This document shows, one piece after another, positions 39,001 to 63,000 of a stretch of 64,000 nucleotides of DNA (positions are counted from its first letter, which is position 1; every line of letters begins with the position of its first letter). Source of the stretch: a virus (taxonomy: Duplodnaviria > Caudoviricetes); IMG/VR virus record IMGVR_UViG_3300031992_000022, positions 32,001 through 96,000 of that record; one strand, given 5' to 3'. Made by a program: the position numbers.

Positions 39001-42000
39001 TATCCAAGACGTAAATAATCGGTCGTGGGATACGTGGGCCCAAAATGTTTATCATTTATAGTATTTAAAAACTATTTAAATTTTAAATATTCATTTCTAA
39101 ATAAAACAGTATATATATTCTTTTAATCATTTTATATAGTTATAAAATATATACGTTGATATAAATATGCACAAATTTATATTCTGATTAATATTAATCA
39201 TAACAAATTTTAAATTAATATTTTTCCAGAAATAGTTATAAATTAACATGAGCTAACATTTATTTAACCCACCTGCCATAGGTAGATACACCTCCATTTT
39301 TTAATAATTAAATATATTATAAAAATATAAATTATTTAATTAGAAGATCTGCTTAGACAGGTAGTTAAATAATGTGTAAGGATTTGTATAAGTGCATAAT
39401 AATTGTTTCTAAGCATTAAAGATATATATAATATATTTACCTTAATTATTTACCACCATCTCCCATTTTATTTTATAATTTATACTTTTAATCATAATAA
39501 AAATATATTTTATTAAAATTTTTAAAAAATCTTTTATAAAATACATTTTCTAATAAATAATAATTTTATATAAAAAATAAATTTTGAATAAATTTATTTT
39601 TCCATATATAAATAATACTTTTATATATATAAAAAAATATATTTATTCAAATAAATTTTTTATCTTTTTCCCATATATGTAAACATATCTGGTGAAAATA
39701 ATTCTCTAAAGGCAGTATTAATCTGATATTTTTTAAAATATCTCAATATCTTAAAAATCTATACCAATTAAGTTCTCTTGTTATTATATATATACTAATA
39801 TATAATCAAATCAATCTACACTTCACAGTGTATTCTAAAATCAATTCAATATATACTTATCTCTTATATATATCATAATTAATTCTATATTGATTCTCGA
39901 ACTCTAATTCGTATTGGCGCTACCAGTGCGCCTCTAAAGTATAAAGTAAATATATCTTCATATAAATTATGTATATCTTGACTTTCTATTAAGTCTTCAT
40001 AAGATATCTTTCTACTTACAACCTTACATTTATTTAACTGTTTATATTCTTCATTTAATAAATATTTCTTTAATATATTCAAAGCACCATTCATATCTGA
40101 ATTTATTAATATACCATTTTTAGACTTATAAAGTCCTCTCTTTACTCTCTCACCTGTAAATTGTTGTTTTCTTAATTCTACTTTATCATCTATGGTTCTT
40201 AATACATATCCTAGTTTTTCATCTTTCTTATAATTTAACATATAATCATTATCTAAGAAAGAAGCTTTAGATGTAAATGATTCTTCTTGAAGAATAAAAT
40301 TTATATTATTCATTTTACATCTATATTCTAAATTATCTTTTATCTTACTAAATGGTATACTAGTAAAAAATTGATTATTTTTTTTACCTAAATTAGCTTT
40401 TCTTTGAAAATCATTATTCCATCCTAATATAATAGTTTTTATATTATTTTGTAAACAATAATCTATTAATTTTTTACAAGTCTTATGAATATAATAATTA
40501 ATTTTATTATTTCGTTTCTTTAATATATTATACATCTTTTTTGTATATCTTAAATTTTTATTAATATTCTTCTCTTGTAATTTACTAATAATTCTATTAT
40601 ATCCTTGATTTATAGATTTTAATTCTTTACCGTCTAATATAAAACTATTAATTTTCTTTTTAGAATTATGATTATAGTTAATGCAAGTCATTAAATTTTT
40701 AACACCTAAATCTATAGCTAAATAATTATTATTAACTCGTATATTATCATTAATTTCTATTTCATAAGTATAATGAATTTCAAAAATTTTACCTTTATAT
40801 TTAGGAACTATTTGAATATATTTTATTTTTTTATCTTTTAATATAGTAGGTATTTTTATTCTAAATCTATCTTTACTTTTTGAATTTAAATTATATTTTT
40901 TTAATATTAATTTACTTAAGGGAATGATCCATTCATTATTTTTATTTATATAAATTTTATTAGTAGATGATATAAAATAATCATTTTTATCTAAATATTT
41001 AGGAATATTACATTTTAATCCTTTTTGTTTTAAAGCGAAAAAGGATTGAAAACTTTCATCTACTATATGAAGAATATTACAAGCAGTTTGTGCTTCGCAC
41101 AACTTATAATTAATATCATTTTTAATACTATGATAATTATTTGTATAATTTAAATATTTATTAGTATTAAAAAAATACTGTCTAATATTATATAAAGCAG
41201 AATTATATAGATTTTTACTATATTTACATAATTCTTTAAATAATATATATAATTGTTTATATTTATATTTACTAACTTGCTGCTTAACAGTTAAATAAAA
41301 TTTATTATCTTTATTGATATTATTTTTAAGATTCCTACTACTAATAATAATCAACTACCTTTTAATATTATAATTAATAATATTAAAATAAATAGATTAT
41401 AAAAAGTAATAGGATTAGATATTTTAAAATCTATTAGGCTTTGATTTTAATTAAAGCATAGATTATATCATTAATATAAAATTATATAATTAATGATTCT
41501 ATAAAAATATACGATATTAATCGTTAAATAAATATATATTGATAAAATATATATTTATTATTAATATTTTATGTAATAATAAATATATTAATAAATAATT
41601 GAATTAATAATCCCTAAATAAGGATTAATATTATCAGAAGTATTAATTAATAATGGCTTTGTTAATCCATTAAACGGCGTTTTTAAAAATGATGATTTAT
41701 TATCTCGCTGAATTTGTTCTACTATAGAATCTAATGACATTGTATTTGCATTATTAACATTATTATTAGAATTAGAATTATTTCCATAATTATTATAATC
41801 GCTACTAAAATTATTACTGAAATTATTATTAAAATTACTGTCAGAGTTATTGTCAAAATTATTACTAAAAGTATTATTAAAATTATTATTGTTATTTAAA
41901 TCAATATTATCTATATCAAATGAATTATTATCACTTATATTATTATTACCTTGATAACTATTATTGTTTTGATAACTATTACTTATATCATTATTGTTTT

Positions 42001-60000: not shown

Positions 60001-63000
60001 ATGGAGTTTATCATATATATTAAATAATTTTAATATAATTATTAATCACTTATATTGTATAAATGTATATGACTATATATTTTAATTAATTTTCAATAAA
60101 TAAATCATTTATTTACTAATATTAGTCGTTATATAATATATTTATTTTTAAATAAATATATATTATTGATAAATAAATGTATATACCAATAATTAATCCA
60201 ATTTTTATAGGAGCACTATATAATATACCCCAGCTTTCATAATCACTAGACTTATGTGCAATATGAGTTATTAATCTACTATCTAATCGTATATTACGAT
60301 TCATTTTTACTGAACGAATTACTTCATCAGGCATTTGATTATATAATTCTGCATTTTCTCCGCGTGGGCCTTCACGAACAATAGTTGTAATTTGATCATC
60401 TGGAATTAATTCAATTACAGCCTCATCAGCGAATACTGAAGTGCGAATATTAATATAATCTGGATTTAATATCGTAAATTTTTCCCATCTGAAATTTTAT
60501 TAAAATCTATATTAAATCTTAATAAATTTATACGTAATAGATTCAGCTTAATTCTTACATATATCTTATTCCATTTATCAAAAAAATTATATATATTTAT
60601 TGAATTATCTCTTAAAATATATAATATTTTAAAATAAATATTATTATATATTATATAATTTCTTATTTTACTCTAATACGTATGGGCGTTAACAGTACAC
60701 CTCTATGGTATAAAATATATCTAAAATCTTTTACTAATTTTAAACTATTTATAACTTTACTTTTATCTAAATATTTTCTCATTATATTTAAAGAACCATT
60801 CATATCTGCATTTATATAATTTACTTTAAATTTAATAAAAGTTTTATTAAATATATATTTGCCGCGGTTCGGCCGACTCCCACTAAATTTATACTTCTTA
60901 TTTTCATCATATACATCTTTTTTTAATTTTACTTTTCCATATATAGGTATATAATCATTTTTTATAAAATTTGCTTTACTTGTATAACTCTCTTCTTGTA
61001 TTACTAATTCTATATTATTTAATTCACTTCTATATCTTAAATTTTCTTTTATTCTATAAAATGGTATATTTACAAAATTTTGATTATTTCTTTTTCCTAT
61101 ATTTATATTTTGTTTTATATTTTCATTATAACCTAATATTATTGTATCTATTCTGTTCATTAAACAATGCGAAGCTAGTTCGCTTAGACCTTTGGTCTTA
61201 GAACAATAATTTATTATATATTTACATGTTTTATTTATTATTTCATTTATTCTATTATTTCTCTTTTTAGTTATATTATACATTTTCTTAGTATAATAAG
61301 GAGCTTTACTATCTTTAGCAGCTAGTTGCTGTAATTTACTTATTTGTTTATTATAGAATTGATTTATTGATTTTAACTTTTTTCCATCTAATATAAAAGA
61401 TTTAAATTTATTTTTATCATTTTCTTTATAACTAACACAAGTACATAAATTATTTATACCTAAATCTATAGATAACAAATTATTATTTTTCTTTTTTAAA
61501 TTTACTCTTTTCTTTATTTCATAAACATATTGAATTTCAAAATAATTTCCTTTATGTTTAGGTATAATCCATATTTGTTTTATATTTTTATCTTTTAATA
61601 TATTAGGTATTTGTATTTTAATTCTTTCATGCGATTGGACTATAGAACCATCATATAAAATCATTCCTCCTTTAAGGAATTCTTTACTCATAGGTATTGT
61701 CCAATATAAATTATCATTTAGATTATGTATATGCTTCATACCTTCAGCATCACATATTTTAAAATATCCTTCTTTATCTAAATATTTAGGCATATTAATT
61801 TTATTTTTAATTTTTCCTTGCTTTTTCATTTTTAGTAAACTAAAAAAAGATTTAAAGTTTTGATCTACTATTTTTAAAATTTGTTGTGAACAACCAGATT
61901 GTAAAAGTTTATAATTTTCATCATTTTTTAATCTTTTATCTAAATTAATATAATTTAAATATTTTTTATTATTAAAATATTCTTGTCTAATAATATATAA
62001 AGCTTGATTATATAAATTTTTACTAATATGAGTGAGTTCTTTAAATAGATTATAAATATCTAAATTTTTTTTAGTAACTTGTTGTTTAACAATACCATAG
62101 AATTTATTTTTATTATTCATATTTTTATTTTTCCTTATAAATTAATATTAAATAATAAATAAGATAATAAAAATATGAATAATATTTAAAATAGATTTTA
62201 ATATCTATTAAGCTTATATAATGATATAAGCATAGATTATATCTTTATAAAAAATTATAAAAGATATTTCAATAAAAAATTATTTACTAAGAGAATAATC
62301 GTTAGATTAAATTATATATTAAATTATATATAATTTTAATTATGGATTTTAATATAATAATTATATTTCCATAAATAATTAAATTATAGCAACACTAATT
62401 GCTTCTTGTTCATTTAAGGTACCAAATATAAAAACATCTCCAATTTTCCAATATTCATGTCCTATACCTAATAACAAATTAATAATATCTAATTTATCAA
62501 AAGCTAAATAATCAAAAAATTTTTTAATATTTATATCAGGACAATCATTATTAAATTCTGAAACTGGATATTCTGTATGCAAATCAATAGCTGTAGCAAT
62601 AATAGGCTCTGTTCTATAAAAATGTCTACACCATTCATTTCTTTCACGCCGATCACGCGGTAATAGCATATTAACTGGTTGAAATAACGGATGATAAAAT
62701 GTAGGATTAGATAGCTTAACATTTAAAGTATTTAATCCATTGGCAAAAAAATTAGCTGCAGCTGTTCGTTTCATTTTACGCTGAATATGCCCAGGTAAAT
62801 CTTGTTTATCTACTAAAGCTGATTTCATAAACCCGCTATTGGAAGTTCTTCTATTCAATGATACATTTTGTAAATTATTAAAATAATGATTTAAATCATT
62901 AATATTAATTGAATTCATTATATATGTGCGGCGGATACTCCTGCTTTAACTGCAAGGAGCCGCGCTCCTCCTCTCTGTTAAATATGTCTTGCGCCTAGAA

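Follow-up and report, generated by a model that had tools for sequence, protein, structure and literature searches.

A phage G-like jumbo phage with probable TnpA-less IStrons in its head genes, and a possible route to RNA-guided intron homing

IStrons join a group I intron to a tnpB gene and a 3′ RNA region. Loss of ORF A is common among the known ones, and copies without it have spread to many sites (Tourasse et al., PMC4227781). In the IStron where the question was studied, splicing and formation of the omegaRNA are mutually exclusive (PMC13521648), and a 2026 review has already inferred intron homing by TnpB-only IStrons, which it says awaits validation (PMC13565253). Here, three such elements, called I1, IA and IC, are described in a window of 64,000 bases, positions 32001-96000 of viral record IMGVR_UViG_3300031992_000022 (158,834 bases; linear class; estimated 32% complete). 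They are very probably TnpA-less IStrons, judging by a group I intron, an IS605-type tnpB and a 3′ RNA region in each, and they are not a new kind of element. In all likelihood they belong to an AT-rich, structurally reduced IStron lineage that has expanded in a phage G-like jumbo phage from the ruminant gut. A sequence-only reading had proposed them as candidate RNA-guided homing introns in virion genes, and the genes are indeed two of the head module: the portal gene and a gene just upstream of the decoration and major capsid genes.

The portal, decoration and major capsid proteins of the window are 50-76% identical to their counterparts in Bacillus phage G, and the window is therefore read as a fragment of a phage G-like jumbo phage. 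The GC content is about 10-33% over the region, and all genes treated here lie on the minus strand. In a tblastn search the phage G portal (gp14) aligns in four colinear pieces (down to 62397, 60487-60227, 60007-59816 and from 57835 downwards). Joining the four exons of Table 1 in silico gives a protein of 596 residues with no internal stop, and its three junctions, NEQEA/IWEKF, DYESWG/TPLMMRCF and ADDDP/YNFIIYHY, recur unchanged in P0121-P0125, five portals from other metagenomes that are uninterrupted and share 77-84% identity with the joined portal overall. On this conceptual splicing, the portal is a three-intron gene, containing IA, IC and a small intron without an open reading frame (ORF), IB, and the insertion sites are strongly conserved codons of an essential gene. 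I1 interrupts the other head-module gene, whose product after splicing in silico ends SDNINP/INTAFRELFSPDMFTYMGKR; the same reading is found in the uninterrupted homologues P0187-P0189, which are 70-80% identical by BLASTP over residues 250-419. Altogether, five junctions in the window are in frame and exact to the base, and four of them match uninterrupted homologues. The intron ends given in the sequence-only reading hold to the base, their junctions agreeing with the homologues residue for residue, and the intron-less alleles with which it had suggested a comparison exist in relatives (P0121-P0125 for the portal, P0187-P0189 for the I1 gene).

The sequences at these splice sites fit a group I intron family. 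In the three elements, the last exon base is a U that pairs with a G in a P1 helix of 6-8 bp, which uses intron bases within the first 4-12. P1 measures 5-8 bp in the seven copies of the record, and a P1 of at least 5 bp with U.G at position -1 is present in 7/7, against 2.1% of 20,000 random sites in the same genome. The intron partner changes with the exon, as in GGGAU-AUCCU, GUUGC-GCAAU, GCUCC-GGGGU, GUAUC-GAUAU and GCCAU-AUGGU. The core contains R/S-type motifs (AACGAYUA...AUAUARUC) with a compensatory change in P7, which is GAUUA/UAAUC in 11/15 copies and GACUA/UAGUC in 3/15 (a C-G to U-A change); all three elements carry the GAUUA/UAAUC form first noticed in them. A P4-like pairing, UUAUUGG/UCAAUAA, becomes UUAUGGA/UCCAUAA in one subfamily, and hairpins P4, P6 and P9 are conserved despite different sequences. 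This ribozyme is strongly reduced: P7′ follows the 5′ splice site by about 160 nucleotides (nt), P2 is not clearly recognizable, the place expected for P7.1/P7.2 has one short hairpin at most, and a GAACGA-type motif was not seen in the window elements.

At the other end, the last intron base is G in six of the seven copies, including I1, IA and IC; to our knowledge, this omega-G before the 3′ splice site is near-universal in group I introns. The 3′ ends read TCAG in I1, IA, IE and IG and TTAG in IC and ID, with ATCAG, TTCAG or ATTAG sitting behind a subterminal hairpin. Between tnpB and the 3′ splice site there is a tail, put at 160-210 nt in the sequence-only reading and measured at 162 nt in I1, 211 nt in IC and 174 nt in IA. 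In 9/9 full-length copies tested, a segment just after P9 pairs with the last 13-21 nt. This inverted repeat has different sequences in three subfamilies and, owing to the AT-rich sequence, gives only modest Z-scores when compared with shuffles (-1.3 to -3.8). Separately, another ACGACUA...AUAUAGUC pair, which we take to be a core signature associated with group I introns, is present at 8216-8286 (-), outside all the elements studied.

The gene of the predicted nuclease lies downstream of the core. The three proteins match Pfam OrfB_IS605 at 58.9 (I1), 65.4 (IC) and 66.3 bits (IA), the cut-off being 30.5, and PHROG 506 matches TnpB with E values of 9e-28 to 3e-21. In an alignment of 23 family members, D215 (IDLG), E357/E358 (QEES) and D420 (NAD.NGA) are invariant. 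Purifying selection acts on TnpB, with a ratio of nonsynonymous to synonymous substitution rates (dN/dS) of 0.21-0.40 among close copies. The full-length frames are open in 8/9 examined (485-525 codons), and the protein looks maintained. The intact-looking tnpB first ascribed to each element thus stands with respect to Pfam matches and open frames; IC is the exception, in that it is without a canonical start before about residue 82. A frameshift in the IC gene was considered and rejected, the frame being open and merely without such a start. Against PDB sequences, phmmer gave no match to TnpB, and the TnpB profile gave weak matches only, to an AI-designed nuclease (5.5e-05) and a Cas12f (0.0016).

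Relatives of these TnpB proteins (32-48% identity) are found in viral contigs, where 193 of 216 matched stretches encode one; 78 loci were retained. Of those listed, 74 do not belong to a second viral record, here called the sister record, and 13 of the 74 have a AACGACUA...AUAUAGUC motif about 200-300 nt upstream of tnpB. Core features were taken from 8-12 of these 13 loci, inspected or aligned. The cores, which precede TnpB relatives of about 45% identity, are GC-richer, and they contain what we take to be the classical P, Q, R and S elements (AAUUGCUGGAA, AAUCAGCAG, GUUCAACGACUA, AAGAUAUAGUC). Their P3 pairing covaries (GACACU/GGUGUC vs GAAACU/GGUUUC). In addition, a GAACGA or GAACTA motif is present in the relatives, their left-end hairpin matches the right-end one, the 5′ flank is T-rich (TTTAT/TTATT type) and the end reads GGTTCAG; these are marks of group A IStrons (PMC4227781; Zedaveinyte et al., PMC10690162). 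In common with these loci, the window elements have a tnpB whose last codons contain a GC-rich hairpin (AGAGGCGC...GCGCC), R and S motifs, P4-like, P6 and P9 hairpins, the inverted repeat after P9, ORF-less derivatives and the (A/T)T(C/T)AG end behind a subterminal hairpin. They are unlike the relatives in their reduced core, in 5′ flanks that are not T-rich and in a left end that, by eye, shows no hairpin resembling that of the right end. Several viral contigs of 200-236 kb (loci L129-L164) contain TnpB-only IStrons with a canonical core, some of them two per contig; these have no tnpA between ribozyme and tnpB and are undetected by Rfam.

From the anatomy, the exact conceptual splicing, the purifying selection on TnpB and the intron-less alleles, all of which are observed, we infer splicing activity, an omegaRNA, its guide and target-adjacent motif (TAM), cleavage and homing. 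The ribozyme would remove the whole element from the RNA, and the portal and the neighbouring head-module protein would therefore be made intact. Here, the core and the 3′ splice site would be brought together by the inverted-repeat stem after P9. Alternatively, the 3′ segment of that stem could fold as a local terminal hairpin, ending an omegaRNA of 213-301 nt that would start at the GC-rich hairpin in the last tnpB codons. Under the published IS605/IStron rule, this IStron anatomy would make the 3′ exon the guide and the end of the 5′ exon the TAM (PMC10690162, PMC13521648). In an unspliced transcript, the guide would then consist of the first 16-20 nt of that 3′ exon. TnpB with this omegaRNA would cut gene copies in which the TAM abuts the guide target, that is, intron-less alleles of co-infecting relatives or copies that lost the element, and the intron-bearing allele would be spared. 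Recombinational repair from an intron-bearing genome would then copy the element in.

The candidate omegaRNA consists of the GC-rich hairpin in the tnpB end, a conserved long-range helix and a terminal hairpin abutting (A/T)T(C/T)AG, with covariation; no Rfam omegaRNA family matched it. The candidate targets, TAM first, are ATCCT followed by ATTAATACTGCC... for I1, ATCCT followed by TATAATTTTATT... for IC and GCAAT followed by ATGGGAAAAATT... for IA. A portal of 57% identity still agrees at 17 of the first 20 bases past the IA site (own count). The idea that the exon is the guide and the upstream exon the TAM is not new, being the published IStron/TnpB model. For these elements, IStron identity and an RNA-guided mechanism together form the best explanation as a whole, which we hold with evenly balanced confidence; the exon-guided omegaRNA, TnpB cleavage and homing by themselves, as read from the sequence, fall slightly short of that. 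More tentative again is the proposal that they are true RNA-guided homing introns in transposase-less jumbo phages, where exon-guided TnpB would cut intron-less head-gene alleles, drive its own spread and perhaps handicap competitors.

Several observations weigh against this reading. With respect to the ribozyme, P3 and P8 could not be placed confidently in the window elements, and in the sister record only 5/8 copies have the U.G in P1, two having A-U and one none. A hidden Markov model (HMM) of the relatives' canonical ribozymes finds no match in this genome with filters off, and the link to the relatives therefore rests on TnpB homology together with by-eye motifs and shared architecture. 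The Rfam group I intron model gave no match in the window or its sub-regions at the gathering score and at E<=10. This negative weighs little, because the control loci of 23 relatives, nine of which carry a canonical core, are also unmatched (20 at the gathering score, 4 at E<=1). The 5′ flanks, ATCCT, GCAAT and GATAT, differ from the TTGAT, ATTAT and TTTAT of group A IStrons (PMC4227781). With respect to the nuclease, the TNB domain reaches 20.4-24.7 bits, below its cut-off of 26.3; cysteine pairs of a CxxC zinc finger are absent from the 23-sequence alignment; and no ATG, GTG or TTG occurs in the IC TnpB frame ahead of about residue 82, the first canonical start being at 59276. In addition, an invariant glycine, G311, occupies in all 23 sequences what we presume, from the usual order of motifs, to be the position of the RuvC-II glutamate. 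Large TnpB clades, some virus-specific, in which this glutamate has become glycine and a second glutamate is thought to substitute, are held to be active, and clades without a zinc finger are also described (Altae-Tran et al., PMC10691335). The combination of G311 with E357/E358 fits these rearranged RuvC-II clades.

The mechanism itself meets three further objections. Some 100 nt ahead of the 3′ end there is an internal hairpin that looks, by eye, like the right-end hairpin of the relatives; the scaffold, and with it the guide, could therefore stop within the intron. The absence of tnpA covers only about a third of the genome. Finally, one subfamily is found at eight sites in unrelated genes, after ATCCT (four times), AACCT (twice), AACCA and ACCCA. 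Copies at unrelated sites cannot come from homing into cognate alleles and need transposition, reverse splicing or another ectopic route. The proposal that TnpB serves as a homing nuclease is partly supported: the IStron anatomy, the purifying selection and the intron-less alleles fit it as far as cognate sites are concerned, and it does not account for the unrelated ones.

The explanation that survives best beside RNA-guided homing, and which we consider unlikely, supplies such a route. Here, the elements would be non-autonomous IStrons moved by IS200/IS605-type transposition, with TnpA acting in trans from the unsequenced part of the phage or from the host, and TnpB would only restore the element after excision, with no invasion of co-infecting phages. 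The eight different contexts after similar short motifs speak for it, as do the TCAG-type 3′ ends with their subterminal hairpin, which recall group A IStrons, the many sites reached by known IStrons without ORF A (PMC4227781) and the fact that the record is only 32% complete. However, the 158,834-base record, about 32% of the genome, has neither Y1 TnpA (PF01797) nor serine recombinase (PF00239), in agreement with the sequence-only reading, which had seen no transposase with the introns. Y1 TnpA was likewise not found in the 167 kb sister record, and no tnpA remnant is present between ribozyme and tnpB. The missing left-end hairpin, which the canonical relatives possess, also argues against transposition. 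Moreover, the guide sequences that pair with the 5′ exon differ among copies, so that the 5′ end would have to be re-fitted after each move.

It is less probable again that the introns are fixed, immobile passengers whose TnpB is decaying or has no role for the element, only splicing mattering to the phage. The IC TnpB without a canonical start, a sister-record tnpB copy truncated by a GC-rich insertion, the absence of the canonical RuvC-II glutamate and zinc finger, and the existence of ORF-less derivatives (ID, and L002-a in the sister record) and small ORF-less introns of the same family are all what such decay would look like. They are opposed by the open frames in 8/9 full-length genes, by the dN/dS values and invariant D215, E357/E358 and D420, and by the active status ascribed to clades with glycine at RuvC-II and a substitute glutamate (PMC10691335).

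A further view, which we find hard to credit, is that TnpB has been taken over for another task, either cutting the head genes of competitors without copying the intron in, or regulating splicing or head-gene expression. The insertion sites in very conserved codons of essential genes are compatible with the former; a jumbo-phage intron-encoded protein endonuclease is reportedly cited as an interference weapon, in work of 2024 by Birkholz. The mutual exclusion of splicing and omegaRNA formation in IStrons is compatible with the latter, yet whether the studied IStron was spliced did not depend on TnpB itself (PMC13521648). Nothing specific to this view was found, and cutting and homing are compatible with each other. 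Lastly, that these are not introns at all, and that the genes are broken by insertion sequences or the record is defective or misassembled, is scarcely believable: the missing Rfam group I match and the terminal A of IB are outweighed by five base-exact, in-frame junctions, four of them matching uninterrupted homologues, by U.G in the P1 of 7/7 copies, by R/S motifs with a compensatory change and by the same architecture in a second record, the Rfam negative being uninformative.

The IStron family is larger than first reported, and on sequence grounds it includes two ORF-less introns in the window, IB and IF. A ribozyme-core profile finds seven copies in the 158.8 kb record and no others there; one truncated copy comes in addition to these (Table 1). 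IF matches IB by blastn at 78% identity over 190 nt (E 7e-35) and by nhmmer at E 8e-18; it has a P1 of ATGGT/GCCAT and a 3′ end of CCAG, and its removal restores the frame. IB ends in A (GATAA/ACT), whereas its sister IF, with the same G-C pair in P7, has a terminal G. Shifted splice sites that would give IB a terminal G were tried and rejected, since every alternative leads to a stop codon or to the loss of conserved residues; the terminal A may be an assembly error or a real oddity. Outside the window, ID and IE share one host gene, which has a sigma-factor-like C-terminus.

The sister record (166,990 bases) has five tnpB matches and eight ribozyme copies, the elements being in other genes, and some of its tnpB products are 83-89% identical to those here. 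About two thirds of each of the two genomes is unseen. The sister record has no homologue of the portal or the I1 host gene, and tblastx between the two records gives low-complexity noise only. ORF-less derivatives that keep only the terminal hairpin are ID in this record and L002-a in the sister record. A related sister-record copy (L002, ~7095) has the same flank, CTTATGGT, at its junction as IF. IE (L122) shares a 12-base 5′ flank, TTACAAGGATAT, with a sister-record element from a different subfamily (L003 ~6000), the two being in unrelated genes; this flank is longer than P1 pairing or a 5-nt TAM explains. At L003 7729-7800 a tnpB copy is stopped early, with a GC-rich insertion containing several hairpins in its 3′-end hairpin region. 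A scan of viral contigs with an R...S DNA pattern returned at least 118 stretches, none matching the family HMM, and they were set aside as chance or unrelated introns.

Table 1. Positions of the exons, IStrons and related introns (window numbering unless marked as genome)
Feature	Coordinates	Strand	Parts and P1	Basis
Portal exon 1	62398..62918	-		tblastn; P0121-P0125 junctions
IStron IA, portal (1909 nt)	60489..62397	-	ribozyme core ~62121-62397; TnpB 60663-62120 (485 aa, ATG start); P1 AGCAAT/GTTGCT with U.G	junction match to uninterrupted portals
Portal exon 2	60227..60488	-		tblastn; P0121-P0125 junctions
Intron IB, portal (219 nt, ORF-less, same ribozyme family)	60008..60226	-	P1 GGGGT/GCTCC; P7 GACUA/UAGUC	junction match; nhmmer E 1.2e-18
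Portal exon 3	59816..60007	-		tblastn; P0121-P0125 junctions
IStron IC, portal (1977 nt)	57839..59815	-	TnpB frame 58050-59516, open (489 codons); P1 ATGATCCT/GGGATTAT	junction match to uninterrupted portals
Portal exon 4	57023..57838	-		tblastn; P0121-P0125 junctions
I1 host gene, 5′ exon (419 codons)	41621..42877	-		ORF 41588..42877 reads on into the intron
IStron I1, head-module gene (1898 nt)	39723..41620	-	ribozyme core 41355-41620; TnpB ORF 39885-41354 (489 aa, TTG start); tail 39723-39884; P1 TAATCCT/GGGATTA with U.G	junction match to P0187-P0189
I1 host gene, 3′ exon (20 codons and stop)	39660..39722	-		translation equals C-termini of uninterrupted homologues
Intron IF (286 nt, ORF-less, same family)	14918..15203	-		in gene of ORF 15202..15939
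ID, relic keeping ~100 nt of the tnpB 5′ end	genome 109174-109676	-		
IE, fourth intact tnpB	genome 106977-109014	-		
Truncated further copy (3′ 511 bases, at record start)	genome 1-511	+		94% identical to I1 tail

The runs that contain the portal stretch, DNA as well as RNA, carry the label "sheep gut metagenome", which is a label only; among the 24 runs listed, two RNA runs contain 0.33 and 0.14 of the sampled words. A megablast search with 15 kb of the window against phages gave no match, as did a single-protein locus search with portal exon 4. In the portal of another phage (L223 1924-2525), which is 56-69% identical to P0121, its nearest uninterrupted portal, there is an ORF-less intervening sequence of about 600 nt that carries UCAACGACUA...AAGAUAUAGUC motifs. 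It is inserted 4-6 nt from the IA site, which makes this stretch of the portal an intron hot spot. Just upstream of the portal gene here, at 63216-63318 (-), is a weak, internally deleted HEARO-like match (26.3 bits).

The I1 host gene has no Pfam or PHROG match, and the C-terminal part of phage G gp25, a candidate name for it, finds no match in the window. Downstream, the decoration-protein homologue at 39050-38544 (-; region 38544-39660) lacks an in-frame start codon downstream of the stop that precedes it, and the 600 AT-rich bases upstream of it contain a short ATG-led frame; there may be one more intron near the start of this gene. The major capsid gene, a homologue of phage G gp27 at 35280-38516 (-), is split into at least six pieces (38516-38355, 37922-37830, 37642-37550, 36891-36679, 35641-35531 and 35336-35280), with the last ~16 codons not located. 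Its first intervening sequence starts with a AAUUGCUGGAA element, R/S-type motifs are present in the gene region at 36949-36992 and 35698-35731, and an ORF at 36063-36407 within an intervening sequence resembles phage G gp28 and HNH-type endonucleases. Further along, a full-length HEARO RNA, of the IscB-type omegaRNA family, lies at 34508-34734 (-) with 99.2 bits against a gathering score of 83. No IscB gene adjoins it, and the downstream ORF 34039-34491 (150 aa) has no Pfam or PHROG match.

The interest of these IStrons is their setting, in which many TnpB-only elements in essential jumbo-phage head genes make a published hypothesis directly testable. A phage genome is the most natural setting for TnpB homing, because co-infection supplies intron-less alleles and phage recombination is brisk. 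The material for a test comprises four intact tnpB genes with defined exon junctions, uninterrupted alleles in relatives, the candidate TAMs ATCCT, GCAAT and GATAT, and small ORF-less sister introns usable as controls. Elements of this type can be dense in large phages, with at least four tnpB in 159 kb here, five in the 167 kb sister record and 193 related viral stretches, and the standard Rfam model misses very AT-rich group I introns such as these. If homing were borne out, it would be the first natural case of a group I intron homing by a guide RNA instead of a protein homing endonuclease. In the literature searched, phage IStrons are named only for Clostridium botulinum phages (PMC4227781), and no report of IStrons in jumbo-phage head genes was found, supplementary IStron and TnpB tables of the papers lying outside that search.

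Among described systems, the group A IStrons of the IS200/IS605 type, among them CdISt1 of Clostridioides difficile and FnISt1, have the same order of parts as the window elements, a 5′ ribozyme with tnpB (ORF B) downstream (PMC4227781, PMC10690162). Their 3′ splice site is at a right end reading TCAG, they have an inverted-repeat stem around the ORF region and a U.G inside P1, and they include ORF-less derivatives and many copies without ORF A, all as here (PMC4227781). The window family is set apart from them by two copies ending in TTAG, by the absence of any tnpA remnant, and by its jumbo-phage host and head-gene sites. The IA2 ribozyme of group A has P7.1/P7.2, P9.0-P9.2 and a GAACGA-type motif, which are seen in the viral relatives, whereas the core is reduced here.

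Group B IStrons, of the IS607 type, resemble the window elements in being carried by phages or plasmid-prophages, namely Clostridium botulinum phages c-st and D-1873, and CboIStron (PMC4227781); in this system, cleavage by TnpB-omegaRNA and the conflict between splicing and guide have been shown by experiment (PMC10690162, PMC13521648). They insert after GG, end in CGG, have a serine recombinase and a G at the 5′ splice site, and none of these holds here. In restorative homing by IS200/IS605 TnpB-omegaRNA, a structured 3′ RNA overlaps the ORF end and runs to the right end, as here, and TnpB targets the TAM together with the sequence that flanks the empty site (PMC10055086, PMC13565253). Here, in contrast, there is no transposase to make empty sites, and the proposed targets are the alleles of other phages. 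Finally, phage introns of the T4 td/I-TevI type occupy conserved codons of essential genes and are expected to spread in co-infection, as would these elements (PMC13565253). What would distinguish the IStrons of this jumbo phage from introns with a protein homing endonuclease is a nuclease that is guided by RNA and whose ORF is close to the 3′ end instead of within a peripheral core loop.

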